A stretch of DNA of 64,000 bases from an uncultured bacterium (lineage in GTDB: Bacteria; Omnitrophota; Omnitrophia; Omnitrophales; Aquincolibacteriaceae). Shown here piece after piece: positions 26,225 to 56,600 of the stretch. The stretch lies in assembly GCA_964482725.1 (NCBI GenBank), contig CAYZYT010000003.1, positions 116,010 through 180,009 on the forward strand, written 5' to 3'. The stretch's first letter is position 1; every line of letters starts with the position of its first letter. Below the pieces are notes generated by a model, which was not told the DNA's origin, did not search any database, and worked only from the letters and a program-made list of their open reading frames with translations. Position numbers and translations under genes: made by a program.

Positions 26225-26400
26225 TCTTTGAAGAAATCAGTGATAGGTGCTGCGGAACTGCGAAAGCGGTTCACGCGGCTTGATAGGGAAGTGAGTCTCG
26301 CGGAAAGATCGCGGGAACTCCACGGTGCCGCCGCTGTAGATGAGAACGAAAGCGAAACAGCCACTGCTCCTTCGGGGGTGGGAAGGTTCGCGATTAGGAA
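26225..26400 (+). ncRNA. Cobalamin (adenosylcobalamin) riboswitch aptamer
   Basis: Conserved core AUAGGGAA (26283-26290) ... GGUGCCGCCGCUGUAGA (variant of CGGUCCCGCCACUGU) ... B12 box CAGCCACUGCUCCUUCGGGGGUGGGAAGGUUC (26358-26390). Close to the E. coli btuB leader (GACACUGCCAUUCGGUGGGAAGUC). Sits upstream of a btuB-like operon. Confidence 0.7.
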
Positions 26401-26540
26401 TGACAAAGCTCATCGAGTCAGAAGACCTGCCTGTTACACAACTCAATATTCAAAATCCTCCGTGCAGAGGAAGCAAAGGTGTCCCGATTCTCCTCTTCTG
26501 AAAATCGGGACCGCGCGGATCAATCAAATGATCCGCTGGC

Positions 26541-26578: not shown

Positions 26579-28699
26579 GTGTCTGGAAATTCAAAGCTCC
26601 GGAGCGAGCATCTCCGGAAGATCAGTTTTTTGTTTCTCGCCGTTTGCCTTCTAAATATCGGATGGAGCTGGCCGTTCTCTAAAAAAAATGACGGGGAACG
26701 CAAACCTACCGTCGAAACTCAATCTATAGCGCCGATCGCTCCGAAAGCTGAAATTAAAGGCCCTCTCCGTCCCGTCGCCGCAGATGTGACGGTCCTCGAA
26801 GTTACACGAACTGAGGATCCCATTGCGAATGTGACCCGGAGTATTTCGGTCATTGATCAGGAAGAGATCCAAAATTCCACCGCTCGCTATGTGCCGGAAC
26901 TATTGAAATCCAAGGCCGGGATCACCGTGACAAATACCACCGGGAACCCCAAAGGGATGACCGTCGATATGCGCGGTTTTGGCGATACGGCAAATCGGAA
27001 CGTGCTTGTGCTTGTCGACGGCCGCCGGACAAATCCGATGGATATTTCCGGGTCGGATTGGGCCGCTATTCCACTTGAGACCGTCGAGCGCATTGAGATC
27101 ATTCGCGGGCCTTCTTCCGTGCTTTACGGGGACAATGCCGCGGGAGGTGTGATCAACGTGGTGACAAAAAAGGCCGGGCCAGGCGTTCATGCCAAGGCGG
27201 AGACTGAAATCGGATTGCATCAATACAAGCGGACGGGTGCGACAGTCTCCGGGGCTAACGACTGGGCGGACGGTCTCTTCCATTATGAAAACACACAGGA
27301 TGACGGCTGGCGCAACAATACGCAATATTGGGCGAACGACTGGTTCGGCAAGTTCGGGGTCGGGCCTTTTGAAGGAGCGGGAGTGAATTTCACTGCGGGG
27401 CATCATCGCGATCGGTATGGGTTAGCAGGCGATCTCTCTGTGGACGAAATGGCGAGCATGGGTCGAACGGGGAGTACGACTTCAAAGGATCATGCCTGGA
27501 GCCAAGAGACCTATTTCACAGCAGATCCTGAGTGGAAATTTGAGCTAGGCGAAAACGCATTTGTGATCTCCGGGTTTAACTCGTTTCAGCGCCGTTTAGC
27601 TAAGGCGGATTATGTTTCCATGGCCAGCAGTGCCGTGAACAATCTGGATTCCTATGAGTTCCAGCCCAAGATGAGCTGGGCGCGCCCTCTTACCGATTGG
27701 CTCACGAGCAAATTAACGACGGGTCTTGATTTCTTTTCAGGGAAGAATGATGTCAAAAACGTCGGGACCACGTTTACGAAGCTTGCGACCATCACCAAGA
27801 AGTCGCTGGATGTTTATGTGATCGAGAATTTTTCATTGTGGGATAAGTTGCTCTTGAATATGGGATTTCGCGGGGGCTGGGCAAAGTACCGGTTTGATCA
27901 GTCTGGGGATACGACGAACCTTGATCAGACGGGGATGCGGAATGCCTCGTTTGATTTTGGAGTCGGGTACAAAGTGTTTGAGAGGTCTCTTGCCTATTTT
28001 GATATCTCCCGTTCTTTTCGGATGCCAGCGACCGATGAATTTTACAGCACCTTCGGAAGCGGTTTGAATGCGGGTTTGAAACAGCAGCAAGAGATGGATT
28101 ATGAATTGGGTTTCCGTGACAATACATTCAAACCGTTGAATATGAGCATGAATCTCTTTCTGGCTGACATCAAAGATGAAATTTTTTATGACCCGAGTGG
28201 CGGCCCGGGAGGATGGGGGGCTAATGCGAATTACGAATCGCCGACGAGACGGTACGGATTCGAAATGGAATCCTCACTGAAACTTTTTAAAAAACGCTGG
28301 TTCAATATTACGCCGTTTTTTAACCTCACAACACAAAAGCCTTATTTTAAAGGGGGGACCTATTCGGGAAAGCACGTCCCGATGGTGCCTGATTTTAAGT
28401 ATTCCACGGGATATACCCTGGAACCCCTTAAAGGGCTGACGGTTTCGACCGAGCTGAACCATCTCGGGCACCAGTTTGCGATCAACGATCAAAAGAATAA
28501 CCTTCCAAAACTTAAAGCTTATACAGTCGTGGATATGAAGGTCCGCTATCATTGGCGATGGGCCACGGCTTGGATTTCTCTTACGAACCTTTTCAATAAA
28601 AAGTACTCAGAGTACAGCGTCGATAACTACATCGGTGGCACGGACTACTATCCGGCGCAGGGCCGCAACCTGGTCACGGGTTTTTCACTGGAGTATTAG
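26579..28699 (+). CDS. btuB: TonB-dependent outer-membrane receptor (BtuB-like cobalamin receptor)
   Basis: Plug domain (..DMRGFGDTANRNVLVLVDGRRTNPMDISGSDWAAIPLETVERIEIIRGPSSVLYGDNAAGGVINVVTKK..), 22-strand barrel region, C-terminal ..GFSLEY. Riboswitch-controlled. Start codon uncertain (GTG 26579). Confidence 0.85.
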   Translation: MSGNSKLRSEHLRKISFLFLAVCLLNIGWSWPFSKKNDGERKPTVETQSIAPIAPKAEIKGPLRPVAADVTVLEVTRTEDPIANVTRSISVIDQEEIQNSTARYVPELLKSKAGITVTNTTGNPKGMTVDMRGFGDTANRNVLVLVDGRRTNPMDISGSDWAAIPLETVERIEIIRGPSSVLYGDNAAGGVINVVTKKAGPGVHAKAETEIGLHQYKRTGATVSGANDWADGLFHYENTQDDGWRNNTQYWANDWFGKFGVGPFEGAGVNFTAGHHRDRYGLAGDLSVDEMASMGRTGSTTSKDHAWSQETYFTADPEWKFELGENAFVISGFNSFQRRLAKADYVSMASSAVNNLDSYEFQPKMSWARPLTDWLTSKLTTGLDFFSGKNDVKNVGTTFTKLATITKKSLDVYVIENFSLWDKLLLNMGFRGGWAKYRFDQSGDTTNLDQTGMRNASFDFGVGYKVFERSLAYFDISRSFRMPATDEFYSTFGSGLNAGLKQQQEMDYELGFRDNTFKPLNMSMNLFLADIKDEIFYDPSGGPGGWGANANYESPTRRYGFEMESSLKLFKKRWFNITPFFNLTTQKPYFKGGTYSGKHVPMVPDFKYSTGYTLEPLKGLTVSTELNHLGHQFAINDQKNNLPKLKAYTVVDMKVRYHWRWATAWISLTNLFNKKYSEYSVDNYIGGTDYYPAQGRNLVTGFSLEY

Positions 28700-28729
28700 G
28701 GTGTCGAGGAAATTTATTCCGGAAAGGAA

Positions 28730-29242
28730 ATGGGAGCTTATATGATCAAGGTTTTCGCTTTAGCGCTTCTGACGGTGTGCGTTTGTTTGCCGGACCTTTG
28801 CGCGCAGGAGATGGCGGGGCAGGGCTTGACGGCCCCAGAGCCGAGACAACGCTCGTCGAGTGCGATTGCGATGGCCATCCCGGGGAACGATCACAATGTC
28901 ATGCGTGTATCTTCGTCGGATTTGATTCCTCCCGCTATCCAACAACAGGCCGAGGGAGAGAGCCTTCCGCCTTTTCCCGTTCTGATGCCGAAAGCCATTG
29001 TCTATCCACGGAAAGCGATTCGTAAGGGATGGGAAGGTCAGACTGTGGTCGCCGCGGAAGTCCTTGCGGATGGGTCCGTAGGGCGAACGGCCTTGGCGAA
29101 GTCCTCCGGCCATGTAGTTTTAGATCAAGCCGCGCAAGAGGCTATCCAATCCTGGAAATTTAAAAATGAGGCTGAGACAGATGAGACTGTCCCGCAATAT
29201 GTGGATATACCGGTCACGTTCAAGCTTCAGGGCGAGGAATAA
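28730..29242 (+). CDS. tonB: TonB-family energy transducer (C-terminal TonB domain)
   Basis: Signal anchor, proline-containing linker and C-terminal TonB_C motif (..VYPRKAIRKGWEGQTVVAAEVLADGSVGRTALAKSSGHVVLDQAAQEAIQSWKFK..). Confidence 0.75.
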   Translation: MGAYMIKVFALALLTVCVCLPDLCAQEMAGQGLTAPEPRQRSSSAIAMAIPGNDHNVMRVSSSDLIPPAIQQQAEGESLPPFPVLMPKAIVYPRKAIRKGWEGQTVVAAEVLADGSVGRTALAKSSGHVVLDQAAQEAIQSWKFKNEAETDETVPQYVDIPVTFKLQGEE

Positions 29243-29244
29243 TC

Positions 29245-30198
29245 TTGAGCTCCTCTAGAAGGAAATTCTTGATTGGCTTCTTACTCTTTATTTTTTGCGC
29301 TTCAAATAGGTCGTTCACTTTTGCGGCCGATATAAAACAAGCGAGTCCCCAGAGAATCGTTTCCATCAATCTTTGTACGGATGAATTGCTCCTTCAGCTG
29401 GTGACTCCGGAACGTGTGGCGGCCCTGACGAAATTTAGCGCCGACCCTGAAGTTTCGACGGTCGCCTCTCAGGCCAGAGACATCCAAAAGATCCAGGGCG
29501 GCATCGAGGATGTTCAGGCTTGTGGCCCGGACCTTCTTGTGGGCGGAAAGTTCAGCCATAAAGAAACGCTCCGTTTTTTTGAAAGTTCCGGGATCCCGGT
29601 CTTGACGTTTGGCCTTCCCAAAAATTTCGAAGACATTTATGCGGATATTCGTAAACTTGCCACAGCGGTGGGGGAAACGGCCCGAGGGGACCAGATCATT
29701 CAAAGGATGCGATCAGATCTCGCGGCGCTCAAGCCGGAGGCCCGGCACAGCGTCGTCATTCTGAGGCCGGAGGCCGAAGAATCTAAAGATGAGATCCTTC
29801 GCCCCGGAATGGCTCAGAATGACGGAAAAAAGATTTTGAAACGCGCATTCTTTTTTCAGAGTGGGGGGCTCGTTCCAGGTTCGGGGACATTCGAGAATGC
29901 GATCATGGAAGCCGCCGGGCTTGAAAATCTTTCGGCCACGATGGGTATTCGGGATTATGGGAGCCTTTCTTTGGAAAAATTGATTGAGATGAAGCCTGAG
30001 GTTTTGATTTTCTCAAGCGATCAGAAAGAAAAACCCACTATTCGAGGGGAAGTGCTCAGTCATCCCGCGATACGGAAGGCATTGCCTCATGTAAAGACAG
30101 TGATCCTTCCGTCGGCGATCCTCAATTGCGGCTCGCCGGCCTCGGTGGAGGCCGTGAGGATTTTGGTGGAAGAGACTCAAAAATCGGAAGAGGCTTAA
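29245..30198 (+). CDS. btuF: Periplasmic substrate-binding protein, class 8 (BtuF/FecB-like) of B12/iron-complex ABC importer
   Basis: Signal peptide; ..RIVSINLCTDELLLQLV.. motif typical of BtuF/FhuD-type binding proteins. Confidence 0.75.
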   Translation: MSSSRRKFLIGFLLFIFCASNRSFTFAADIKQASPQRIVSINLCTDELLLQLVTPERVAALTKFSADPEVSTVASQARDIQKIQGGIEDVQACGPDLLVGGKFSHKETLRFFESSGIPVLTFGLPKNFEDIYADIRKLATAVGETARGDQIIQRMRSDLAALKPEARHSVVILRPEAEESKDEILRPGMAQNDGKKILKRAFFFQSGGLVPGSGTFENAIMEAAGLENLSATMGIRDYGSLSLEKLIEMKPEVLIFSSDQKEKPTIRGEVLSHPAIRKALPHVKTVILPSAILNCGSPASVEAVRILVEETQKSEEA

Positions 30199-30246
30199 AA
30201 AGCCCCAAAAGCTAAAAAGGGTTTCTTTTTTAGCCTTTCAGGCATC

Positions 30247-31284
30247 TTGAGCATTTTTAGCTTTCAGCCTAGGCGAGGATTCATGAAAAAAAATATTGGC
30301 AAAGAGCTGCCGGCCCTATGGCTTTATGGCCTGCTCGGGATCGCGCTTGCGGCAGCTTTTCTTGGGTCCTTGAATGTCGGTCCTACGAAGATCCCGCTCT
30401 GGAATGCTTTCCTCCATCCTTCGTCGGAGGGGGCTTTTATTCTCTGGGACATTCGTTTGCCACGCGCAATCTTGGGACTTTTGGTGGGAGCGACGCTCGG
30501 GCTTGCCGGTGCCGCGATGCAGGGATTTTTGCGTAATCCTTTGGCGGAACCCGGCGTGCTTGGCGTGACGGGCGGCGCGGCGCTTGGCGCAGTGCTTGTT
30601 TTTTACACCGGGCTTGCCTCGGCGTTTTCGCTGGCATTGCCCCTCGGCGGCATTTTGGGGGCATTTTTTTCCGTGCTTTTGCTCTATCTTTTTGCCGGCC
30701 GTCTCGCGAACGTTCAGACGCTGATCCTGGCGGGTGTGGCGATCAACGTGATTGCGTTCTCGGGGACTTCTCTGGTGCTCAATCTCACGAAAGATCCGTA
30801 CGCCGTTCTTGATATTGTTTTTTGGCAGATGGGTTCGCTCGCGGACCGGAGTTGGACGCATGTCTTTTTGGCGTTGCCTTTCATCCTGATCGGGTGGGGT
30901 TGGCTTTTTTGGGACCGGCGGGCGCTGGACGCGTTAAGCCTCGGCGAAGAAACGGCGGCGAGTCTTGGTCTGGATCTCAAGGCCCTGCGCCTGAGGATGA
31001 TCCTGGGGACGGCTCTTTGTGTGGGCGCGGCAGTGTCGATATGTGGAAGCATCGGTTTTGTTGGACTCGTGGTGCCGCACCTTTTGCGCCCGCTCGTGGG
31101 GCATGAACCGGGAAAACTTTTGGGCGTTAGCGCTTTGGGCGGGGCGCTGCTTCTTCTTTTATCCGATAGCGTGGTACGGCTCATTCCCTCCATGGTGGAA
31201 CTGAAGCTGGGCGTTGTGACGTCCCTGATCGGCGCGCCATTTTTCATTTTGCTGATCTTTCAGATGAGGCGGAAACTTTTATGA
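30247..31284 (+). CDS. btuC: FecCD-family ABC permease (BtuC-like)
   Basis: 10-TM FecCD pattern with conserved ..LPRAILGLLVGATLGLAGAAMQGFLRNPLAEPGVLGV..; start may be the ATG near 30283. Confidence 0.85.
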   Translation: MSIFSFQPRRGFMKKNIGKELPALWLYGLLGIALAAAFLGSLNVGPTKIPLWNAFLHPSSEGAFILWDIRLPRAILGLLVGATLGLAGAAMQGFLRNPLAEPGVLGVTGGAALGAVLVFYTGLASAFSLALPLGGILGAFFSVLLLYLFAGRLANVQTLILAGVAINVIAFSGTSLVLNLTKDPYAVLDIVFWQMGSLADRSWTHVFLALPFILIGWGWLFWDRRALDALSLGEETAASLGLDLKALRLRMILGTALCVGAAVSICGSIGFVGLVVPHLLRPLVGHEPGKLLGVSALGGALLLLLSDSVVRLIPSMVELKLGVVTSLIGAPFFILLIFQMRRKLL

Positions 31285-31292
31285 AGGGACAG

Positions 31293-31329
31293 GCACACTA
31301 AGGTAGGTCACGTTTAAACGTGACCTACC
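31293..31329. repeat. Intergenic 37-nt element with 28-bp perfect palindrome, copy 2 (between btuC-like and btuD-like)
   Basis: Identical to 7265..7301; palindrome ends 16 nt before the ATG at 31345. Confidence 0.8.
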
Positions 31330-31344
31330 TCCATTAGGATAAAT

Positions 31345-32103
31345 ATGGCGACCTTAATTGAAGCGAAAAAAATCAGCGTTTCGTTTGGCGACGTTCCGAT
31401 CCTTCAGGACGTGGACCTTGAACTCCGGAAGGGAGAAGTGCTTGGGCTTATCGGACCGAATGGCGCTGGAAAATCGACTTTGCTGAAAGTGCTTATCGGC
31501 GAAGTGACGCCGGAGTCGGGGAGTGTCAGGATCCTGGACGGGAAGAAGTCCCCACTGGCAAAAAAGGTCGCTTATTTGCCGCAAGGGCAGGTTATCCACT
31601 GGCCGCTTAGCGTGAAGCGGTTGGTTTCCCTGGGGCGCATTCCACACCTTATGCCTTGGGAGCCGTTGGGCCCGGAAGATGAGAAAGCGATCGCTCGTGC
31701 GATGGAAGATACGGACGTGACACGTCTGAAAGACCGTTTTGTTGATCATTTGGCCGGAGGCGAAAGAAATCTGGTTCTCTTAGCTCGCGCGCTTGCGACT
31801 CAACCTTCCGTGCTTTTGGCGGATGAGCCTGTTCAGGGGCTTGATCCGGCACACGGACTTCAAGTGATGGAACTTTTATCCCGGTTTGTGGACCACGAAC
31901 GGGGCGCGATCGTGGTATTGCACGATCTGACGCTTGCGGCTCGGTTTTGTCACCGGCTTGTCCTGCTCGATCAGGGAAAGGTTCTTGCCTCGGGAAAGCC
32001 CGAAGAAGTTCTTTCGCCCGAAAATCTCAAGAAGAGTTATCATGTCGAAGCTAAGTACGGAACCGGCGACGAGTTTTATATCGTGCCTTGGAGAAAGGTC
32101 TGA
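31345..32103 (+). CDS. btuD: ABC ATPase of B12/iron-complex importer (BtuD/FhuC-like)
   Basis: Walker A GPNGAGKSTLLK, signature LAGGERNLVLLARAL, Walker B LLADEP. Confidence 0.85.
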   Translation: MATLIEAKKISVSFGDVPILQDVDLELRKGEVLGLIGPNGAGKSTLLKVLIGEVTPESGSVRILDGKKSPLAKKVAYLPQGQVIHWPLSVKRLVSLGRIPHLMPWEPLGPEDEKAIARAMEDTDVTRLKDRFVDHLAGGERNLVLLARALATQPSVLLADEPVQGLDPAHGLQVMELLSRFVDHERGAIVVLHDLTLAARFCHRLVLLDQGKVLASGKPEEVLSPENLKKSYHVEAKYGTGDEFYIVPWRKV

Positions 32104-32726
32104 AAATGCGGGGAACGGGGAGCGGTCCCAATACTTTTCAATCGAAGCAAAGCGGAGATTGGGGCCGTCCTGACTACCGTCAATCAAACAAAAGCCAAAG
32201 TCAGGACGGGGAACGAGCCAAGGGAAAGAGGCGAGGGCTGATCCTTGTTTTTACCGGTGAAGGTAAAGGGAAGACGACCGCGGCGATGGGAACAGCGCTT
32301 CGAATGATCGCCCAGGGCGGGAAAGTGGGCGCAGTTCATTTTTTTAAACCCCGTACTTCGTGCGCCGTACTTGGTTCTCAATACAAGAGTTGGAGCTTTG
32401 GCGGTGGGTTCACGTGGAAGACGTCGCGGGAAGAAAATTCCGGAGCGGTCCGCCAGGCGTGGAAGAAATGCTGTGAATTATTGAAGGACCCGAAATACAG
32501 CCTTGTGATCTTTGATGAGATCCACATTGCGCTGAAATATAAATTTCTCACAACCGCCGAGGTCCTGAGCGCTCTCCAAAAAAGGCCGGCCCGCCAGCAT
32601 GTGATTCTCACCGGGCGCGGTGCTCCCAAAGCCATCCTTCGTGGGGCGGATCTCGTGACCGAGATGAAATGCGTGAAGCATCCCTTCAAGCGGGGTGTGC
32701 TCGCCCAACCTGGGATTGAATTCTAA
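32088..32726 (+). CDS. cobO: ATP:cob(I)alamin adenosyltransferase (CobO/BtuR/CobA family)
   Basis: P-loop GLILVFTGEGKGKTTAAMG and conserved C-terminal ..DEIHIALKYKFL..VLTGRGAP.. regions. The 5' end is ambiguous (TTG 32088 or ATG 32106 with a GGAGAAAGG RBS). The N-terminal ~35 codons run through a REP-like repeat. Confidence 0.8.
   Translation: MEKGLKMRGTGSGPNTFQSKQSGDWGRPDYRQSNKSQSQDGERAKGKRRGLILVFTGEGKGKTTAAMGTALRMIAQGGKVGAVHFFKPRTSCAVLGSQYKSWSFGGGFTWKTSREENSGAVRQAWKKCCELLKDPKYSLVIFDEIHIALKYKFLTTAEVLSALQKRPARQHVILTGRGAPKAILRGADLVTEMKCVKHPFKRGVLAQPGIEF
32115..32200. repeat. REP-like hairpin repeat, cggtcccaat/attggggccg family, copy 1 (inside the cobO 5' region)
   Basis: About 80% identical to 35425..35520 (agcggtcccaatacNtttc...attggggccgtcc...actacc). 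Confidence 0.6.
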
Positions 32727-32893: not shown

Positions 32894-33499
32894 ATGAAAA
32901 AATATACAGATCTCAGTCTCGAAGATTATATCGAAAAGCTTGCCAGCGATGCGCCGGTGCCGGGTGGCGGGAGCGTTTCAGCCTATGCCGGAGCTTTGGG
33001 CATGGCCCTGACGCAGATGGTTTCGCGGATCGCGCTCAAGCGAAAACCCAAAGCGGACCTTACGGCAGAGCAGAAATTCCAGGATGAAGCCAACCGGAAG
33101 CGGATGCAGGAGATCGTCGATTCGCTGGAGAAGACCCGGGCGGATGCCCTTCAGGTAGTGTCGCTCGATCCCCAAGTCTATGATGAAGTGATGGCGTGTT
33201 ACAAAGAAGGGGCGGGGCCCGAGAAACTGGAAGATGCGCTTCAGAATGCGTTCCGGCTGCAGGCGGATCTTGCGCTGATCCTTGTGATGGCAAAGGAATG
33301 GAACGAGCACATGAAAACCCTCGTAAAAGGCGCTGTCGCCAACGATCTGATCGTCAGTGACGGACTTCTCTCCGCGGCATTTGAAGGAGCTTTTCATACC
33401 GCGCATATCAATGTGGTTTACATGAAAAACAAAGAACGGAAAGAGCGTGCCGAAAAGGCGCTGGCGGAACTGAGAGGGCGTTTCACCAAGGGTGCGTAA
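32894..33499 (+). CDS. Cyclodeaminase/cyclohydrolase-family protein (FTCD C-terminal-like; formimidoyl-/methenyl-THF cyclo-enzyme)
   Basis: N-terminal LSLEDYIEKLASDAPVPGGGSVSAYAGALGMALTQMVSRIAL matches the FTCD_C/FchA signature; 201 aa. Confidence 0.75.
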   Translation: MKKYTDLSLEDYIEKLASDAPVPGGGSVSAYAGALGMALTQMVSRIALKRKPKADLTAEQKFQDEANRKRMQEIVDSLEKTRADALQVVSLDPQVYDEVMACYKEGAGPEKLEDALQNAFRLQADLALILVMAKEWNEHMKTLVKGAVANDLIVSDGLLSAAFEGAFHTAHINVVYMKNKERKERAEKALAELRGRFTKGA

Positions 33500-33690: not shown

Positions 33691-34545
33691 GTGGAAGCGA
33701 AAAGACTTGAAGGAAAAGTAATCGCAGCGAGCCTGCAGGAAAAGATCCTTGAGAAGGTAGGGGCCGCTACAAGGGCGGGTCTTCCAAGGCCGTCTTTGGC
33801 TGCGATCCAGACGAGTGATGATCCGTCCGCAGTCTGGTATATCAACAGCCAAGAAAAACTTGCCGCAAAACTCGGCATTGATTTTCGGCGCATTATGCCT
33901 GATCAAGTGAAGGGGGAGAAAGCCCTGATCCAGAAGGTTCAGGAGCTTGGCGCCGATAAAACGGTCCATGGACTTTTCATTTCAATGCCGTTCCCCCAGG
34001 GAATTGACGCCGACAAAGTGTTGCTTGCCATGGATCCGAAAAAGGATGTCGAGGGGGTTCATCCCACAAGCCTTGGACTGATCGTTCTTCGGCGCGGCAA
34101 ACTGATCCCTCCTACGGCATTTGCCGCCTACACGCTCATTAAGGCGAGCGGCATCATGTTACGCGGGAAAAAGGCGGCAATCATCGGTCAAAGCGCCATT
34201 GTCGGAAGACCCCTCCAGCTATTGCTGGGCGAGGCACGGGTGACGACGCTTGTTTGTAATACGGGTACGGCCGAAGAAGATATGAAGAAAATCGTTGGAG
34301 CGGCTGAGATCGTAGTGGCTTGTTCGGGGAAGCCCGGTCTTGTGAAAGGCGCTTGGATCAAGCAAGGCGCGGTCGTGATCGATGTCGGGACGACTGAGGT
34401 CGACGGGAAACTCCAGGGCGATGTCGAATTCGATGAAGCGAGCAAAAAAGCCAGTTTTATTACGCCCGTCCCTGGAGGCGTGGGGCCGCTCACCGTGACC
34501 ATGCTCATGGAAAATCTTATCATTGCGTATGAATGGCAAAAATAA
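33691..34545 (+). CDS. folD: Bifunctional 5,10-methylene-THF dehydrogenase / 5,10-methenyl-THF cyclohydrolase
   Basis: Conserved FolD blocks ..GKKAAIIGQSAIVGRPLQLLL.. and ..TPVPGGVGPLTVTMLMENLI..; 284 aa. Confidence 0.9.
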   Translation: MEAKRLEGKVIAASLQEKILEKVGAATRAGLPRPSLAAIQTSDDPSAVWYINSQEKLAAKLGIDFRRIMPDQVKGEKALIQKVQELGADKTVHGLFISMPFPQGIDADKVLLAMDPKKDVEGVHPTSLGLIVLRRGKLIPPTAFAAYTLIKASGIMLRGKKAAIIGQSAIVGRPLQLLLGEARVTTLVCNTGTAEEDMKKIVGAAEIVVACSGKPGLVKGAWIKQGAVVIDVGTTEVDGKLQGDVEFDEASKKASFITPVPGGVGPLTVTMLMENLIIAYEWQK

Positions 34546-34629: not shown

Positions 34630-35421
34630 ATGAAACTCACCCCTCAAACCATCTATTCAAAAAAGAAGGCCGGCGAGAAGATCGTCTCTCTCAGTCTCTA
34701 CGACTATCCGAGCGCGAGGATCGCCGATGGGGCGGGTGTGGATGTCATCATGGTCGGCGATTCGGTGGGGATGGTGCTTCTGGGGCATGAAAACACGCTC
34801 GGGATGACGATCGAACACATGCTTTATCACACCGCAGCGGTCGTCAAGGGTGTGAAGCGCGCTCTCGTGGTCGCGGATATGCCCATTCATTCCTACAATG
34901 ATCCCGAACTGGCGTTTGTGAACGCAAAACGTTTGATGCGAGAGGCAGGGGCCGATGCTGTGAAGCTCGAAGGCGGTGCGAAGATCCAAGCCCAGATCCA
35001 AAAACTTGTGACCGAAGGCATTTCTGTGATGGGGCATGTCGGGATGCTGCCGCAAAGTGTCGGAGACGGAAAATACCGTGTCTATGGAAAAGATCCGGAC
35101 GAAGCCGAAAGGATCCTTGAAGACGCGAAACTTCTGGACCGGATGGGCGCGTTTGCGATCGTACTCGAATGTGTGCCGGTAAAACTGGCTGATCAGATCA
35201 CAAAAGTCGTGAAGTGTCCGACGATCGGGATCGGCGCGGGTCCCGCGACCGATGGGCAGGTGCTCGTATTCCACGATCTGCTGGGCATTCGTTCCGGTGT
35301 GAGCCCTCGTTTCGTGCGGCGCTATGTGAATCTTGACGCGATCATGAAAAAAGCGGCTGGCGATTACTGCCGTGATGTTCAGAAACAGAAATTTCCTTCC
35401 ACCAAAGAGAGCTTCTCATGA
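34630..35421 (+). CDS. panB: 3-methyl-2-oxobutanoate hydroxymethyltransferase (ketopantoate hydroxymethyltransferase)
   Basis: ..IVSLSLYDYPSARIADGAGVDVIMVGDSVGMVLLGHENTLGMTIEHMLYHTAAV.. PanB signature; 263 aa. Confidence 0.9.
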   Translation: MKLTPQTIYSKKKAGEKIVSLSLYDYPSARIADGAGVDVIMVGDSVGMVLLGHENTLGMTIEHMLYHTAAVVKGVKRALVVADMPIHSYNDPELAFVNAKRLMREAGADAVKLEGGAKIQAQIQKLVTEGISVMGHVGMLPQSVGDGKYRVYGKDPDEAERILEDAKLLDRMGAFAIVLECVPVKLADQITKVVKCPTIGIGAGPATDGQVLVFHDLLGIRSGVSPRFVRRYVNLDAIMKKAAGDYCRDVQKQKFPSTKESFS

Positions 35422-35424
35422 TCA

Positions 35425-35520
35425 AAGGGCGGTCCCAATACCTTTCGATCGTAGCCGAGCGGTCCCAACACCTTTCAATTTCCAGGGAAGTGGAAATTGG
35501 GGCCGTCCAAACTACCATTT
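35425..35520. repeat. REP-like hairpin repeat, cggtcccaat family, copy 2 (with a partial third copy)
   Basis: ggcggtcccaatacctttcgatcgtagccgagcggtcccaacacctttcaatttccagggaagtggaaattggggccgtccaaactacc. Confidence 0.6.
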
Positions 35521-35542
35521 CAGAAAAAAATAAAAAGTTTGG

Positions 35543-37057
35543 ATGGAGATCGGGGCAGTCCTTGATTACTTTACGGAGACATTTATCATGATCAAGGGCA
35601 AGCGGATCCTGGTCGCCGAACGTGACGACGCGACACGGGAGCTTATCCTTATGCGCCTTCATTCCCGCCACCATAAGGTTTTTGAGGCTTCGAAAAGCAG
35701 CCAGGCTGTGAGATTTCTGGATCGTGAGGTCTTGGACCTGATCCTGCTTTCGAGCGATATGGAACCCGTGGGCGGCAAGATGCTTATCCAGGTCATTCGC
35801 TCCCGTTCTCATCTTATGTCGGTCCCCGTGATCATGATCACCGAGGAACACCAGCTGACAGAGCTCATGCTCGGGCATGAAAAAGGTTTCGACGATTTTC
35901 TGGTGAGGCCGTTCAGCCCGCTTGTGTTGCAACTGCGTGTGAATCTGAACATTGCTAAGACGATGGAGAGGATGGAAGCCAATGCGCTCACGCATCTCCC
36001 GGGCAATCATGCGATCGAGAAGCTCGTCCTGAAGAAGATCCAGGCGGGAGAAAAATTCTCGGTTCTTTACATCGATATCAATAACTTCAAGGCGTTCAAC
36101 GATCATTACAGTTTCCAAAAAGGGGATGAGGCGATCCTTCAGACCGCCCGGCTTCTCGTGACGACCAGTCATGCCGTGGCGCGGGACGGGGAGTGCTTCA
36201 TCGGGCATATCGGGGGTGACGATTTCATTGTAGTGCTGCCCGCAGAACTTGAAGAAGTCTTCGCGCGGCAATTCATCGACGATTTTGACCGGATCATTCC
36301 CACTTATTACAATATGAAGGATCGGGATGCAGGATTCATCCGAGTGGAGAACCGGCGCGGCAAAATGGAAAATTTCGCCCTGATGTCCTGCTCCGTCGCA
36401 GGCTGCACCAACCTATACCGGAATTACGTGAATCTCCGCGAGATCGCGCAGGATGCCGCAGAGGTCAAGACGTTTCTCAAAAGCCAGCCGGGGAGCCATT
36501 ATCTCCAGGACCGCCGTTCCTCGCCAATCAAGCAACTGGAGGAGGCTGTCCACATTCTGGAGCCAGAGATCAAACCCGCCAAACCGAAGAAGCGTGTGGA
36601 CCCACTTGGCCAGGTCCTTGTGAGTTCCGGCCTCATCACTGAAGAGCAGCTTGGCAAGGCCCTCAAGCAGCATCTCGAGACAGGACATCGCCTTGGCCAG
36701 ACCCTGATCGATATGAATCTCATCTCAAGCCAAGACGTGGGCAGGATGCTAGAAAAGAAGCTCAAGGTTCCTTATTTCAGTCTGAAGGGATGGACTCCGG
36801 ACCCGGCGATCTTTCATCTTTTTAATGCGGAATTTATTTTTCATCACCGCGTGGTCCCGATCGGCGTGAGTGAAGACTCGGTGAGGATCGCGATGTGCGA
36901 CCCGTTCGATCTGAAGACTTTGGACGCGATCGAGCGGATCACAGGGCTCAAACCCGTGCCTTATCTTGCCTTGGAAGATGAATTTGAACAATTTCTGGAA
37001 AGCCTGGCTCCGGAGACGGACTCCAGGCTCGAAACCGAGACACAAAAAATAGTGTGA
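35543..37057 (+). CDS. Response-regulator receiver + GGDEF-like (variant GGDDF) + MshEN/T2SSE_N-type c-di-GMP-binding domain protein
   Basis: REC domain (KRILVAERDD..DLILLSSDM..). GGDEF fold with ..YIDINNFKAFND..HIGGDDFIVVL... C-terminal T2SSE_N repeats carry the MshEN c-di-GMP motif PLGQVLVSSGLITEEQLGKALKQ and a second RLGQTLIDMNLISSQDVGRMLEKK. Confidence 0.7.
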   Translation: MEIGAVLDYFTETFIMIKGKRILVAERDDATRELILMRLHSRHHKVFEASKSSQAVRFLDREVLDLILLSSDMEPVGGKMLIQVIRSRSHLMSVPVIMITEEHQLTELMLGHEKGFDDFLVRPFSPLVLQLRVNLNIAKTMERMEANALTHLPGNHAIEKLVLKKIQAGEKFSVLYIDINNFKAFNDHYSFQKGDEAILQTARLLVTTSHAVARDGECFIGHIGGDDFIVVLPAELEEVFARQFIDDFDRIIPTYYNMKDRDAGFIRVENRRGKMENFALMSCSVAGCTNLYRNYVNLREIAQDAAEVKTFLKSQPGSHYLQDRRSSPIKQLEEAVHILEPEIKPAKPKKRVDPLGQVLVSSGLITEEQLGKALKQHLETGHRLGQTLIDMNLISSQDVGRMLEKKLKVPYFSLKGWTPDPAIFHLFNAEFIFHHRVVPIGVSEDSVRIAMCDPFDLKTLDAIERITGLKPVPYLALEDEFEQFLESLAPETDSRLETETQKIV

Positions 37058-50616: not shown

Positions 50617-53600
50617 ATGAAAAATAAAAATGTTGTAGACCAACTATGGGAATGCAGTGACTCGAAACGTGGAATGGGGAATGGGGAACGTTCTGCGAAT
50701 TTCGAACTGCAGAAGACAGACCAGAGACTAGAGACTGCAGCCTGGAATTTTGGAACGTGTGACAAGCGTTTGGTTTATGAGTCTCCGGTCTCCAGTCTCT
50801 TGTCTCGAGTCGTTTTCAAAAAAGCGGTGGCGCTTGCGACAGCCTTTGTATTCCTTTGGTCGATGTGCATCACGCCGGTGATGGCGGAAACGATCAATGT
50901 CCAGGGCGGCAGTATTGATGTGAATGTTCAGGACAATACGACGAACTGGAATGTCCAGGGCAATCCCGTGTGGAACGTCCCCGAGTTCAATGTGGCGCAA
51001 GGAAACATTTATAACATCGCGGGTCTTAATCAGGGCTCCAGTCTTGCGCTTCTTGTGAACGGCGGCAGTGCCTCCAACATCTTCGGAACGATGAACCTCT
51101 CCAATCTGGATTTCATTCTTCAAAATATCGCCGGCATCAACATCGGCGGAAGTGCCATGATCAATCTCTCGAACGCGTCCCTAATCGCCTCGACATTGCC
51201 ACTCAACCTGAGCACGACGGATTTTCTCTCAAGGGATTATCAGTTCAGCGGGCAGGGCGGGTTCCTGATGAATGCTGGGAAGATCGTCGGGACAAATGCC
51301 GATCTTGTGGCCCTGGTTGCGAACGCCATCGAAAACCGCGGGACGATCGAAGTACCGATGGGTACCGTGGCGCTTGCTGCGGGGAATACGGTCACCGTTG
51401 GCATCTCGCCGGACGGCATGGTCTCGATCGGTGTCGATGAAGCGACAGCGAACAAAATGGGCTTGAAGGATCAGATCAAGAACAGTGGAAGTATCACGGC
51501 CGACGGAGGCCGGGTGGTCCTGAATGCTCAGGCCATGGACGGGCTCTTTGACAAAGCCATCAGCATTGAACGGAGCGGGAACTCTGTCGATGCAGTCCGG
51601 GCGGATAACGGTACTGTCGATTTCCAATCCATGGATGATGTCTTTAACGATGCGGTTATCAAAGCATCGGGCGGGACCGTCAAGATCGCATCAACCCAAG
51701 GCGCCGTGATGAATGCCGGAACCCTTGAAGCAAACAAGGGCAAAGTTGAAGTGACAGCTGCCCAAGAAGTGACGAATAAGGCGAAGATCGAGGCGATCGA
51801 AGGAGCGATCAAGATCATCTCTGAGAAAAGCGACGTGGTGAATCAGGGGACGATGAAGGCGGACAAGGGTGAGATCAAGATCGCCTCGACCCAGGGTGCC
51901 GTGACGAATGCCGGGACTGTGGTGGCGGCTAAAGGTAAAGTCGAAGTCGTGGCCGCTAAAGACGTGACGAATCAAGCGACCGTTCAGGCGGATGAGGGTT
52001 CGATCATCGTCGTGTCCACGAAAAGAGATGTGGTGAATCAGGGGACAATGAAGTCAGAGAAAGGCGAGGTCAAGATCACCTCCACTCAAGGGAACGTGAC
52101 GAATGCCGGGACGGTTGCCGCGGATCATGGCAAGATCGAAGTGACCGCTAAAAAGGATATTGTGAACGACGCCATCATGAGCGGCGTGGGAGGAGAGATC
52201 AAGGTCAATTCCACCGAAGGGGCTATCACGAATAAAGGCACGCTGAAAGCCGACGACGGAGCCATCAGACTCACGGCGGCGCAAACGGTTTATAACAAAA
52301 AACTTATGGATGCGCGACAGGGCAAGATCGAAGTTGAGTCCGTAAAGAGTGACGTGGTGAACGAAGGGACGATGGCGGCTGAAAAAGGCGAGATCAAAGT
52401 CACGTCTCTGGAGGGCAAGATCACGAACGCCGGCATCATGCAGGCCCAGAGCGGCAATATCAAGCTCACCGCCGAACAGGCGGTTTACAACAAAATGCTC
52501 ATCGAAGCGCTTGGCGGTAAGGTGGAAGTGACCTCCAAGAAAGCGGAGGTTACGAACGATGGTACGCTTGACGCGGTGGGAGGAAAAGTCGCGCTGACTG
52601 CGGCGGGCGCAGTGGAAACAAAGGGCGTTTTGAAAGCGGCGGAAGTGACCGAGCGTGGCGCGAGCTTCAAGATGGGCGGGCGGGTCGAAGTCGGGACGAT
52701 GGATATGGATAACCTCGACAATCGCGCGGACATCGCGGCGCTGGCCGAACTTTCCGGTGTTTTTTCAGACGAAGATGACATTACCGTCCTCGGCGATTTC
52801 AGTCTTGTCGGAGATACCACGATCTGGACCGATTCCAATGTGACTGGGACGGACGGGACGCTCACCTGGGATGCGGATCATACCGTGACTGGGAACGGCC
52901 ACGACCTCACGCTCAAAGTCTCCAAGAATTCCACCGTCGGCGCGATCACAGGCGTGGATCTTCTCACGCTCGACAAGAACACCGACAAGACGCCGACTTA
53001 TACCGGCTCCACCGCCAATGACATCAGCGTGAACACTTTCAAGACCATGAACGGCGTGACCTTTTCCAAGACCGTCACCGGAAGAGACGGCCTCGCCGCG
53101 AATACAGCCTTTCTTGTCTACGATGTGACCCAACTCCAGGGCATGGCCAATGACCTGGATGCCTTTTATGAAGTCGCCAACAACATTGACGCCTCCGAGA
53201 CCTCAAGCTGGAATGCCGGTGCCGGTTTCGATCCTGTGGGAAATGTCGATCCGGGGACCGAGTTTACGGGAACGTTTGACGGTGCAAACCACACCATTTC
53301 TGATCTTAAGATCAGCACCTCTTCCGACAATGTCGGCCTTTTCGGCTATATCTCCGGGGCCGGAGCCATGATCTCAGATATCCGGCTCTTGAATGTCGCT
53401 GTCGCGGGCGGTACTTACGTTGGCGGACTCGTAGGATTTAATGCCGGCGGCTCCGTTGATAATGCAGGCAGCAACGGGACTGTTAGTGGTAGTAATGTCG
53501 GCGGGCTAGTGGGACAGAATGAAGGTTTTATCAGTAACTCTTACGGCGGCGGAACCCTCAGCGGTGGCAATGTCGGCGGCTTCGTGGGATACAATACGGG

Positions 53601-56600
53601 CACTATCAGCTACTCCTACAGTACGGGGAGTGTCAGCGGCGGTAACAATGTCGGCGGATTGGTGGCGGTGAATAGTGGACCTATCAGTTACTCCTATAGC
53701 AATGCAGATGTTTTTAGCAGCAATTCTTCTATCGGCGGGTTGGTGGGAAATAACTCCTTTGCTACCATCAGTAACTCCTACAGCACCGGACGCGTTTTCG
53801 GCGGTCAGTATGTGGGCGGGTTGGTGGGTATCAACGATAACGGTTTTGTCAATAATTCCTACAGCACAGGAAATGTTGTTGGAAGTGGTTCTTATTATAG
53901 CAATGGTCAGTACATCGGCGGGTTGGTGGGAGGTAACTGGTATGGCTCGGTCACTGATTCCTACAGTACGGGAAGTGTAAGCGGCGGAATCCGTGTGGGG
54001 GGATTGGTGGGTATGAACGATTGGAGTTCCATCAATAATTCCTATGCGACAGGAAATGTATCAGGCAATACCGCGTCTAACAATTTAGTCGGGCCTCTCA
54101 CAGGTACTCAGGGCACTATTAATAATTCCTACTACGTGTCAGGCACTGCCAGCAATAGTGGCGGCGGTACAGTCAATACCTATGGAACCGGGACTGATAC
54201 CGTAGCCAATTTTCAGAATCCGGCTCACACAGCCTTGGTTTACACAGCGGGTGCTTCTCCTTGGACATTCAATGCCTCCAACTGGAAGGTCGTGACCTAC
54301 GATGATGATTATCCCTATCTGACGTTCGAGGAGAATGTTAATACGGCGGCTCAACTTAAAGCTATCTCTGGCGGTGATTTAACGGCCCGATACAGGCAGG
54401 GCGCCGATATCGATCTGACCAGCGTAGATTTTACCTCCTATATCATCGGTAACACTACGGCTTTTACGGGCACATACAATGGCAATGGTTATACTATTTC
54501 TAATCTTACAATAAGTGCGCCGACCACGGATAATGTCGGGCTCTTCGGATCCACATCCAACGCGACGATCCTTTCCAACATACATCTCCAGAACGTGGAT
54601 ATTTCCGGTCAATCGAGCGTCGGCGGATTGGTGGGGTCCAATAGCGGTGCTTTTATCAGCAATTCATCGGTTTCCGGGATTGTAAGCAGTACAGGTGATT
54701 ATGTAGGCGGGCTTGCGGGATCGAGCTTTGGCTCTATCAGTAATTCTTACAGCTCCGGCAGTGTAACAGGCGGTGGCGATTATGCCGGCGGGTTGGTGGG
54801 AAGTGTTTTTTTTAGCACCCTCAGTAACACCTACAGTACTTCGAGCGTAAGCGGTCATGATTATGTGGGCGGGTTGGTGGCATACAGTGAAGGTATAACC
54901 ATTCTTAACTCCTACAGCACCGGGAATGTAAGCGGTGCTAGCTATGTCGGTGGTTTGCAGGGATTTAGTGATGGTTCCATCGATAATTCGTTTAGTACAG
55001 GACGTGTCACTGCTACCGGTAGTTATGTGGGCGGTTTGGTGGGAGGAAATTGGAGCACAATTACCAATTCCGGATGGTATGACAACGCCGGAGATAGTGC
55101 CACTTATGCCATCGGAAGCGCCTCAGCGGACATCACCTACAATGTCGGGAAAGCAGGTACGGACGGAGGCGGCAAATATTACTATGCATCTTCTGACTCG
55201 ACCTGGTTCTTCGATTCCTCGAAGGATATTTATGATACGGGCGCGACTCCGTGGGATATTGCCGCAACGCATGATGGCTCTGCTTGGGCGATGTCGGGGA
55301 GTAATAGCGCGTTCCCGCTCCTGCAGATGCGTTACTCCACGACGATTACTGACGCTGTTCAGCTCCAGTTGATGTTCCTTGATCTCGCAGGTAATTACAC
55401 TCTCGCCAACAACATCAGCGCTGCGGAAACCTCGACCTGGAACGCTGGTCTCGGATTCGATCCGGTGGGAGACAGTACGAATGAATTCAGGGGAATTTTT
55501 GACGGTAATTCGAAGGTGATCACAGGCCTTACGATCAACAGAGAAACCGAGAGTTATGTCGGCCTTTTTGGGCAAACAAGCGCCGCGACAATTTCAGACA
55601 TCGGCCTCTCTGACGTCAATGTCAAAGGCCTCGAGTTTACCGGCGGACTGGTGGGCTACAATTACAACAGCACGATCGAAAATTCTTTTTCAGCAGGTAC
55701 CGTGACGGGCGCTGATGCGAGTTCCCAAATCGGAGGTCTCGTGGGTAAAAATGATTCTTCAGGCGAGATTACCCATTCTTATTCCACCGGGACTGTCACT
55801 GCCGGCAGCGGGAGTTATCGTGTCGGCGGGCTTGTGGGTTATGCCGGCTCTACAAGTAATATCAACGATTCCTATTCCACGGCGGACGTGACAGGCGTCG
55901 GCGATAGTTCTTATCTCGGCGGTCTTTTGGGCTTTAATAATGGCGGTGCCATCGCCAGCTCTTACGCGTCAGGTACCGTAACAGGCGGCGTTGGAAGCTA
56001 CAATATGGGCGGCCTTGTCGGGACGAATTATAACGGCGGCACGATCAATAAGTCCTACTCCACCGGGGCTGTCACGGGAAATGACGACAGTTATCAACTG
56101 GGCGGACTTGTGGGGCAAAACGGTACTGCCGGCGCTGCAAGCGTGGTCAGCAACTCTTATTCCACGAGTAACGTAACGGGCGGCAGCAATAGTTATCGTC
56201 TCGGTGGACTTGTGGGAGAGAACAGCTCCAGCGATATTACCAACGCCTATTCATCCGGAACTGTCGCAGGTGCAGACGGTACCTCCCAAGTGGGCGGTCT
56301 TGTGGGTTTTAATAATTCAGGCGACGTCACGAACTCCTTTTCGGCAGGCGCCGTCACCGGCGGTACCGGCAGCGACCACATCGGCGGTCTTGTCGGTGAT
56401 GATGTCACCGGCACCTACGTCAACAACTGGTATGTTTCCACCAGCCAGGGGATTAGCAATAAAGCGGATGTTGTAGGCGAGGTGAGCAAGGAGACCGACG
56501 GCGCGAGCGCTTTCTTTGATTCTGCGCATCCGGTCTATTGGCTTAATGGCATTCCCTCAGGGACGGCTGCTTGGGATATCCATACGACTTACAATGCCAG

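Follow-up and report, generated by a model that had tools for sequence, protein, structure and literature searches.

Can a protein whose cyclase domain reads GGDDF, where diguanylate cyclases (DGCs) read GG(D/E)EF, make cyclic di-GMP (c-di-GMP), or does it only sense it? The question is raised by a gene in a 64,000-nucleotide stretch of DNA from an uncultured Omnitrophota bacterium (contig CAYZYT010000003.1; the whole stretch is called the window below). A preliminary description of the window had listed an open reading frame (ORF) for which we find 504 codons and a TGA stop at exactly the same coordinates, 35543..37057 on the plus strand; residue numbers follow this ORF throughout, and numbering from M16 is used only where stated. 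The encoded protein (the query) had been described as a response regulator that could be a c-di-GMP sensor or effector, or else a cyclase with built-in product sensing. We put the probability at roughly 0.45 that it is catalytically active as a cyclase of the GGDDF class, senses its own product in cis and works independently of phosphorylation. This reading draws on sequence and on the precedent of GSU1937 from Geobacter sulfurreducens, and we favour it because the residues of active-site (A-site) type and the core of the MshEN domain are invariant, the acceptor aspartate of the receiver is dispensable, and GSU1937 provides an active GGDDF enzyme.

Hidden Markov model (HMM) searches give the domain layout. 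Pfam Response_reg (PF00072) matches residues 22-133 with 47.3 bits (cut-off 30.2), Pfam GGDEF (PF00990) matches residues 149-235 with 45.2 bits (cut-off 23.8; just profile positions 6-91 of 161 are matched), and Pfam MshEN (PF05157) matches residues 408-493 with 74.3 bits (cut-off 23.1). NCBIfam NF053729, 'cyclic di-GMP-binding domain, MshE-related', matches residues 354-405 with 60.2 bits (cut-off 38). All these matches lie above their cut-offs, so that the proposed combination of a receiver (REC), a GGDEF-like domain and MshEN, including the T2SSE_N/MshEN model on which it hinged, is borne out. The order is REC (residues 22-133; 35606..35941), a GGDDF-class palm domain (about 147-325, from NALTHLPGN to QPGSHYLQDRR; 35981..36517) and one MshEN domain (354-493). 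The preliminary description had counted two T2SSE_N/MshEN repeats. This count was wrong and we rejected it: because Pfam MshEN covers 408-493 and NF053729 covers 354-405, the C-terminal third is a single domain, with one Pfam stretch and one N-terminal motif domain, i.e., the four-helix MshEN_N with its two tandem motifs followed by the alpha/beta subdomain MshEN_C (408-493; 36764..37021).

An AlphaFold2 model built on 65 homologues (mean predicted local distance difference test score, pLDDT, 83) has three well-folded domains and a low-confidence linker. Foldseek against the PDB returned WspR, PleD and DgcR as the best matches for the first two domains (E 5e-18 to 3e-17), alongside matches to many GGDEF domains, and PilF GSPII-A (9g1w), MshE (5htl) and PilF GSPII-B for the third, with 8pdk also matched; 9g1w and 5htl align to MshEN_C as well. 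A long helix of residues 126-143 (35918..35971; helix 111-128 of the model in M16 numbering) leads from REC to the cyclase domain and is presumed, by analogy with WspR, DgcR and PleD as the best structural matches, to be a dimerisation stalk. The linker between the cyclase domain and MshEN (residues 326-353; 36518..36601) is probably flexible, with pLDDT below 50 at residues 322-336 in M16 numbering.

The GGDDF motif occupies residues 224-228 (36212..36226), at the end of the active-site hairpin H222-I-G-G-D-D-F228 (36206..36226), where the canonical form is R-x-G-G-(D/E)-E-F. It is found in every homologue that covers the column, i.e., in 120 sequences of a first set and in 188/188 of the three-domain homologues (30-99% identity to the query) used for the counts out of 188 below; GGEEF occurs in none of them. 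The departure from GG(D/E)EF that had been noted is therefore genuine. Because the motif is invariant in 188/188, we rejected a sequencing error or frameshift as its origin, and from this conservation GGDDF reads as a signature of the clade, neither a lesion nor a defect. The surrounding residues are equally constant: D178, K183, N186, H222, G224, G225, D226, D227, K309, K313 and S318 are each present in all 188 proteins, and D195 in 184. Alignment to the DGC PleD pairs D178, K183, N186 and D195, which lie in the putative nucleotide-binding segment beta1/alpha1/alpha2 (D178-I-N180-N-F-K183-A-F-N186-D187 ... G194-D195; 36074..36127), with D327 (metal ligand), K332 and the guanine readers N335 and D344.

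Further towards the C-terminus of the domain, in its second half, we relied only on motif anchors and on the secondary structure that is predicted, because hhalign and profile alignment failed there. The search of PDB sequences with a profile of the GGDDF domain stopped at about position 100, and hhalign of this profile against five canonical domains (the C-terminal part of PleD being entered by hand) gave near-zero confidence past the GGDDF hairpin in a forced global alignment, so that it was rejected as a residue-level mapping onto PleD. By the anchors, K309-x3-K313-SQP-G317-S318-H-Y320 (alpha4/beta5; 36467..36502) would be the counterpart of K442-xx-G-R446-N, with K313 probably corresponding to K442.

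We also agree with the preliminary description that an RxxD inhibitory site (I-site), a common though not an essential feature of DGCs, is missing. The query has R214-D-G-E217, one residue out of register; no such site is present across the group, and R214 is found in just 34/121 homologues. In the degenerate GGDEF receptors that are known, it tends to be the A-site that has decayed and the I-site that survives, the reverse of what is seen here.

To delimit the wider group, the profile of the GGDDF domain alone, built from the family, was searched against 1.84 billion cluster representatives (50% clustering). With E<=1e-30 as the limit, at least 1151 representatives are matched; those listed, 150 in number, span nearly all 191 profile positions, whereas solved canonical DGCs in the PDB reach at most 45 bits and align over the N-terminal half only. 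The new top matches read GGDD[F/Y] in 149/149 cases, nearly all with a preceding GH and most with LTxLPGN. The signatures LTxLPGN, D-x-[DN]-x-FK-x-x-ND, GHxGGDD[F/Y] and K-x3-K...GS-x-Y are all carried by the query, and by these motifs GGDDF marks a large, separate GGDEF subclade, spread over many phyla, to which the query belongs. A scan of species-representative genomes found it in Omnitrophota, Desulfobacterota (Desulfovibrio, Geobacter, Syntrophorhabdus), Clostridia (e.g., Lacrimispora amygdalina), Actinomycetota, Nitrospirota, Gemmatimonadota, Elusimicrobia, Planctomycetes and Chloroflexi. Among 100 clade proteins the partner domains are REC (63), EAL (16), HAMP (14), MshEN (11) and CBS (11), in architectures that include REC-GGDDF, REC-GGDDF-EAL, transmembrane (TM)-HAMP-GGDDF, EAL-CBS-GGDDF and a hybrid kinase form; REC, HAMP, EAL and CBS are the usual inputs of DGCs.

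Within the clade, the base-reading residue after a conserved Gly is mostly D, with S or N in some members (GN in L023, P0197 and P0154; GS in L030, L038 and L040; AS in L049). The N is found at this position in some of the MshEN fusions of clade B (defined below), and the S is as in Hypr synthases of cyclic GMP-AMP (cGAMP). This variation suggests, at the level of sequence, that the members of the clade are not all specific for the same nucleotides. Six of 100 of them, L049 included, have sub-threshold matches to the second palm domain of Cas10/Cmr2 (best E 3.3e-5), which probably reflect the shared GGDD hairpin.

GSU1937, a TM-HAMP protein with GGDDF and the Ser base reader of the Hypr type, is reported as the first active GGDDF enzyme (PMC8835794). 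One fusion of GSU1937 to the REC domain of GacA made cGAMP and c-di-GMP in E. coli, a GADDF mutation abolished the activity of this fusion, and in Geobacter the cGAMP reporter was less active when GSU1937 had been deleted (PMC8835794). In our set, L049 from Geobacter sp., a TM-HAMP protein in which the base-reading position reads '...KAS', matches the published description of GSU1937. It has every clade signature and shares LTxLPGN, GHxGGDDF and K...K..GS.Y with the query, so that GSU1937-type enzymes probably belong to the GHxGGDDF clade. The literature searched holds no other experimentally active GGDDF enzyme; the EAL-CBS-GGDDF protein PA3258 showed apparent residual DGC activity in Salmonella once its EAL domain had been disabled (PMC12900916). 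Since GGDDF is the hallmark of a large subclade, the GTP and metal residues aligned with PleD are invariant, and GSU1937 is active in vivo, the suggestion of a sensor rather than a cyclase is weakened, and that of a cyclase with built-in product sensing is the better supported of the two that the preliminary description had offered.

If the enzyme is active, phosphorylation is unlikely to be its switch. The REC domain has a (beta-alpha)5 pattern in the AlphaFold2 model, with a Foldseek TM-score (target-normalised) of 0.85 to PhoB receiver domains, and it retains the acidic pair after beta1 (E26 and D28) as well as T100 after beta4; at the position of the conserved Lys after beta5 the query has R122, whereas most homologues have K. 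HMMER aligns S70 (codon 35750..35752) with D53 of PleD, the phospho-acceptor at the end of beta3. This column has S in 105 and A in 13 of the first 120 homologues, and never D; over the 188 three-domain proteins the counts are S111/D47/A15/G12 (S, A or G in 138). The acceptor position thus varies while the residues of A-site type stay invariant in the same 188 proteins. Because S70 stands in place of the acceptor Asp, a loss that had been overlooked, the label 'response regulator' does not hold, and by its sequence the protein is a pseudo-receiver rather than a phospho-accepting regulator. The second receiver of PleD (D2) is also aspartate-less and serves dimerisation, and would be the closest analogue of the query's receiver.

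The proteins with D at this column form a group of their own. The 188 three-domain proteins separate cleanly into two clades, A (with the query) and B. The acceptor position has S, A or G in clade A and D in clade B; the beta1 motif is DxN versus DxD; position 10 of MshEN motif II is N versus G, and position 24 is K/R versus Q; and the REC Lys position is K or R in clade A and mostly N in clade B. Since Asn mostly replaces the conserved Lys after beta5 (DDYIxNPPDPI) while the acceptor Asp is kept, e.g., in P0134 and L014, the clade B receiver also looks atypical in sequence. We considered, and rejected, a coupling of the D-to-N change in beta1 to the loss of the receiver Asp as a joint degeneration; a small sample gave no strict link, and over 188 sequences the two changes separate clades A and B, each state being conserved within its clade.

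The MshEN motif, RLGxx(L/V/I)(L/V/I)xxG(L/V/I)(L/V/I)xxxxLxxxLxxQ, occurs twice with a 5-residue spacer (PMC5013675). In the query, motif I is PLGQVLVSSGLITEEQLGKALKQH (residues 354-377), the spacer is LETGH (378-382) and motif II is RLGQTLIDMNLISSQDVGRMLEKK (383-406), together the 53 residues of MshEN_N (36602..36760). The motif for binding c-di-GMP quoted in the preliminary description is therefore present, but the string given there has 23 residues, and the full motif I has 24 (P354...H377), starting with Pro where the canonical residue is Arg and ending with His where it is Gln. HMMER against MshE (5htl) pairs query residues 354-463 with chain residues 9-118 at a constant offset of 345 (P354/R9, H377/Q32, R383/R38, N392/G47, V399/L54, L403/L58, K406/Q61), and the two motifs are in register with R9-Q32 and R38-Q61 of V. 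cholerae MshE. Counting R1, L2, G3, G10, L17, L21 and Q24 of both motifs as key positions, 9/14 are canonical (L2, G3 and L21 of both motifs, L17 and G10 of motif I, R1 of motif II) and one is conservative (V399). The substitutions of the non-binder XpsE are absent from the query, except for the lost Gln at position 24 of motif II, which is Lys here and Val in XpsE. The motif positions are also well conserved among the 188 proteins: P354 in 184, G356 in 188, L370 in 188, H377 in 181 (otherwise mostly Q), R/K383 in 183, G385 in 186 and L403 in 188. We read this as a ligand site that is maintained in the query's family, and on balance, if with some reserve, the residues point to c-di-GMP binding by the query's MshEN.

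Taken together, the arrangement suggests the following mechanism. The aspartate-less receiver and the stalk helix would form a dimer scaffold that is regulated without phosphorylation, and the GGDDF palm domain would bind GTP and convert it to c-di-GMP. MshEN, on its flexible linker, would bind the product in cis and would then either feed back on the enzyme, in place of the absent RxxD I-site, or hand the signal to a partner protein.

A number of points weigh against this proposal. Three canonical positions of the cyclase are changed, and invariantly so (R366 to H222, E371 to D227 and R446 to S318), and the second Asp of the beta1 DxD is N180 in the query's clade. In MshEN, the key positions P354, H377, N392 and K406 deviate; P354 and K406 fall within the relaxed published motif, but that motif does not allow for H at position 24 or for N at position 10, and R9 and Q32 of MshE, both changed in the query, are reported to be important for binding (PMC5013675). 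PilF GSPII-A, the best structural match of the query's MshEN, does not bind c-di-GMP; it has His at position 24 of motif I and a badly degenerate motif II. In E. coli, wild-type GSU1937 showed no activity, nor did three of its four fusion constructs (PMC8835794), and PA3258 had no phenotype in P. aeruginosa (PMC12900916). The place of GSU1937 in the clade is deduced through its homologue L049 and a published description, and that of PA3258 through a description. With a predicted template modelling score (pTM) of 0.44, the full AlphaFold2 model does not predict how the domains are placed relative to one another, and we rejected its inter-domain geometry as unusable. Finally, catalysis, c-di-GMP binding by the variant MshEN, dimerisation by the stalk and the direction of feedback are inferred.

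Some of these points would equally suit a non-catalytic c-di-GMP receptor or adaptor, in which GGDDF binds nucleotide as an allosteric or scaffold module, MshEN senses c-di-GMP and the output is a protein-protein interaction. The non-canonical H222, D227, S318 and N180, the missing PA3258 phenotype and the inactive GSU1937 constructs fit such a role, the lost phospho-acceptor could be part of a general degeneration, and GTP-sensing degenerate GGDEF domains exist, e.g., the GEDEF domain of CC3396. We nevertheless consider it unlikely. GGDD, the metal ligand and the guanine readers are conserved not just in the 188 sequences but also in a clade that numbers more than 1000 representatives and has DGC-type partners, the GGDDF domain has no I-site with which to bind c-di-GMP, and the sole active GGDDF fusion construct was inactivated by the GADDF mutation.

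Doubts about MshEN lead to a different alternative, an active GGDDF cyclase whose MshEN is a non-binding docking domain, as for T2SSE_N of GspE with GspL, and which sites c-di-GMP synthesis at a partner complex. This, too, has a low probability in our estimate: the hydrophobic and Gly residues that form the c-di-GMP-contacting core are all in place and hardly vary, the NF053729 cut-off is exceeded by 22 bits, GSPII-C of PilF tolerates Pro at motif position 1 and binds c-di-GMP with a dissociation constant of about 460 nM, and neither in the window nor in six Pfam-annotated loci of clade A relatives is a gene for a type II secretion system (T2SS) or a type IV pilus close by. What speaks for docking is that the query's clade departs from the consensus by R1 to P, Q24 to H, G10 to N and Q24 to K whereas the paralogous clade B retains a canonical motif II (G and Q), that the nearest solved structure, GSPII-A, is a non-binder with the same His, and that MshEN_C is strongly conserved. 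A chemistry of another kind, with some other cyclic or linear (oligo)nucleotide as the product and an MshEN variant tuned to it, would explain the clade-wide H, D and S for R366, E371 and R446, the clade-specific LTxLPGN and K-x3-K, the D, S or N at the base-reading position, the cGAMP made by GSU1937 and the weak Cas10/Cmr2 palm matches in 6/100 members, but it is very improbable given the guanine-type N186/D195 pair of the query, the ordinary cGAMP and c-di-GMP made by the GSU1937 fusion and the frequent EAL partners that point to c-di-GMP.

A wider reading goes beyond the cyclase with product sensing in cis, and we offer it as speculative, with odds well below even. The GHxGGDDF clade would be a mechanistically distinct and ancient class of cyclases, with H, D and S for R366, E371 and R446 and no I-site, overlooked because degeneracy is what is usually assumed of its members. 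Fused to a variant MshEN in Omnitrophota, it would form a synthase-receptor circuit complete on one polypeptide, with phosphorylation control lost, and would be placed in a conserved operon of folate, pantothenate and haem biosynthesis so as to link c-di-GMP homeostasis to cofactor metabolism.

The operon itself is an observation. In clade A the gene is always located downstream of panB, and in 6/7 fully read loci it adjoins panB directly, in the typical order FTCD_C-folD-panB-X-(ccsA/hemX-like)-hemA-hemC-hemD-hemB, where X is the three-domain gene and stop and start codons often overlap. This cofactor supra-operon is seen at L001, L005, L006, L008, L009 and L089 (and L088), and the synteny persists to about 32-37% identity. 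In the window, the conserved upstream neighbours are FTCD_C (32894-33499), folD (33691-34545) and panB (34630-35421), all on the plus strand; downstream are three small ORFs of unknown function, a KTSC protein, an I42 inhibitor, a HemY-like oxidase and two radical-SAM enzymes. Clade B genes are sited elsewhere, one of them adjoining hemE. All named three-domain members belong to Candidatus Omnitrophota and carry database labels like 'response regulator', 'diguanylate cyclase', 'Response regulator PleD' or 'hypothetical protein'. We rejected the neighbourhood as a functional clue: the genes around X are cofactor genes, and none for a pilus, secretion, polysaccharide or a kinase recurs beside it. 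In two Omnitrophota genomes a REC-GGDEF-HD-GYP gene lies just downstream of the hem cluster (L005 15114-16844; L006 14282-16027), with GGEEF or SGEEF as its motif, and in L005 with Ser/Glu changes at the positions equivalent to N335/D344 (INEKFGYRAGE).

The Rfam search (gathering threshold) found no riboswitch just upstream of the gene; the sole match is a cobalamin riboswitch (RF00174, 79.7 bits) 9 kb upstream, at 26228-26448 on the plus strand. It is followed at 26579-32726 by genes for a TonB-dependent receptor, TonB, a periplasmic binding protein, a FecCD permease, an ABC ATPase and a CobO/BtuR adenosyltransferase; riboswitch and Btu-like genes are an ordinary operon for B12 uptake and salvage. 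At the other end of the window, a giant ORF of more than 4461 codons (50617-64000, plus strand) runs past the window end.

The start of the gene probably lies inside the ORF. Many homologues start at query positions 16-20, i.e., at M16 or a few residues off, GGAGA sits 9 nt 5' of the ATG at 35588..35590, and in the 92% identical relative L087 the gene begins at the equivalent codon, with an ATGA overlap with the panB stop. The product (MIKGKRILVAE...) would then have 489 residues. A lineage-specific spacer of ~170 bp (35422..35587, plus strand) separates panB from this start, and the junction of panB stop and start is duplicated: a 16-nt sequence, TTCTCATGATCAAAGG, spans the panB stop, and a second copy, TTATCATGATCAAGGG, lies at the probable true start (window 35413-35598), with the ~170 bp inserted between them; L087 lacks the insert. 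A frame of 57 codons stays open across the insert, from ATG 35418 to TGA 35591, with ATGA overlaps with both neighbours. An intergenic element of ~120 bp is repeated at two junctions, ABC-ATPase/cobO (about 32120-32250) and panB/target (35455-35570). Both copies contain GAGCGGTCCCAAYACYTTTCAAT...ATTGGGGCCGTCC and an inverted repeat with compensatory changes between them (CCGTCCAAACT/AGTTTGGATGG versus CCGTCCTGACT/AGTCAGGACGG). A 21-nt unit of the element occurs 3 times in the window versus 0 expected and in none of 90 fetched loci; the element could be of the repetitive extragenic palindromic (REP) or miniature inverted-repeat transposable element (MITE) type, or a small structured RNA.

What is new here is limited, in that each domain is already known and the proteins have long been in databases under automatic names. 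We did not find described the GGDEF-MshEN fusion, the delimited large GHxGGDDF clade, or the Omnitrophota-wide syntenic form without the aspartate. The founding paper on MshEN (PMC5013675) does not name GGDEF as one of its partner domains and has it in the supplement only in census tables, and a full-text literature search on fusion names returned no GGDEF-MshEN fusion; the preliminary description had remarked on an unusual domain order. Should the GGDDF clade be active, censuses that score GGDDF as degenerate would miscount DGCs in many phyla, Desulfobacterota, Clostridia, Actinomycetota, Nitrospirota and Omnitrophota among others. The covalent link between cyclase and MshEN receptor would be a natural case in which sensing of the product in cis takes the place of the I-site, and local c-di-GMP signalling could be studied in it as a compact system. 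Omnitrophota are an uncultured phylum with very small cells, and a signalling gene that is syntenic throughout the phylum makes a good first target for heterologous biochemistry. Current concepts are not overturned by these findings.

Comparison with known systems places the query between several of them. The order of receiver, linker helix and GGDEF palm is that of PleD (C. crescentus), WspR (P. aeruginosa) and DgcR (Leptospira), which are the best sequence matches for the N-terminal two thirds and have in common with the query the metal ligand, the Lys and the Asn/Asp guanine readers. Unlike these enzymes, the query has S70, no RxxD, H-x-GGDDF for R-x-GG(D/E)EF, Ser for R446 and an extra C-terminal MshEN, and the C-terminal half of its GGDDF domain is too divergent for the Pfam GGDEF model. 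GSU1937 shares GGDDF but has TM-HAMP as input, is without MshEN and has Ser, not Asp, at the base-reading position, which makes it a cGAMP producer. PA3258 (RapA) from Pseudomonas, compared by description only, also has the GGDDF motif, and its EAL-CBS-GGDDF order is present in the clade, e.g., in L051 (Lacrimispora amygdalina), but it is primarily a phosphodiesterase with indirect evidence for DGC activity.

On the receptor side, MshE (5HTL) and GSPII-A/B/C of T. thermophilus PilF have the same two-subdomain fold with two 24-residue motifs and a 5-residue spacer. Their MshEN is N-terminal to a secretion or pilus ATPase, whereas that of the query is C-terminal to a cyclase, and the query differs from their consensus in P...H of motif I and in N at position 10 and K at position 24 of motif II. 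MshEN as an input module for c-di-GMP on non-ATPase domains is also seen in Bd2402 (REC-MshEN_N) of Bdellovibrio, so that REC-MshEN is a known combination, and in NfrB (GT2-MshEN) of E. coli, a model of which matches query residues 349-470. NfrB is said to be under the local control of its own dedicated DGC, from work by Junkermeier and Hengge in 2021 that PMC12448109 cites. By analogy, NfrB and its DGC would be the two-protein equivalent of what the query, unlike Bd2402 and NfrB, carries on one polypeptide: a cyclase domain together with a receptor domain.

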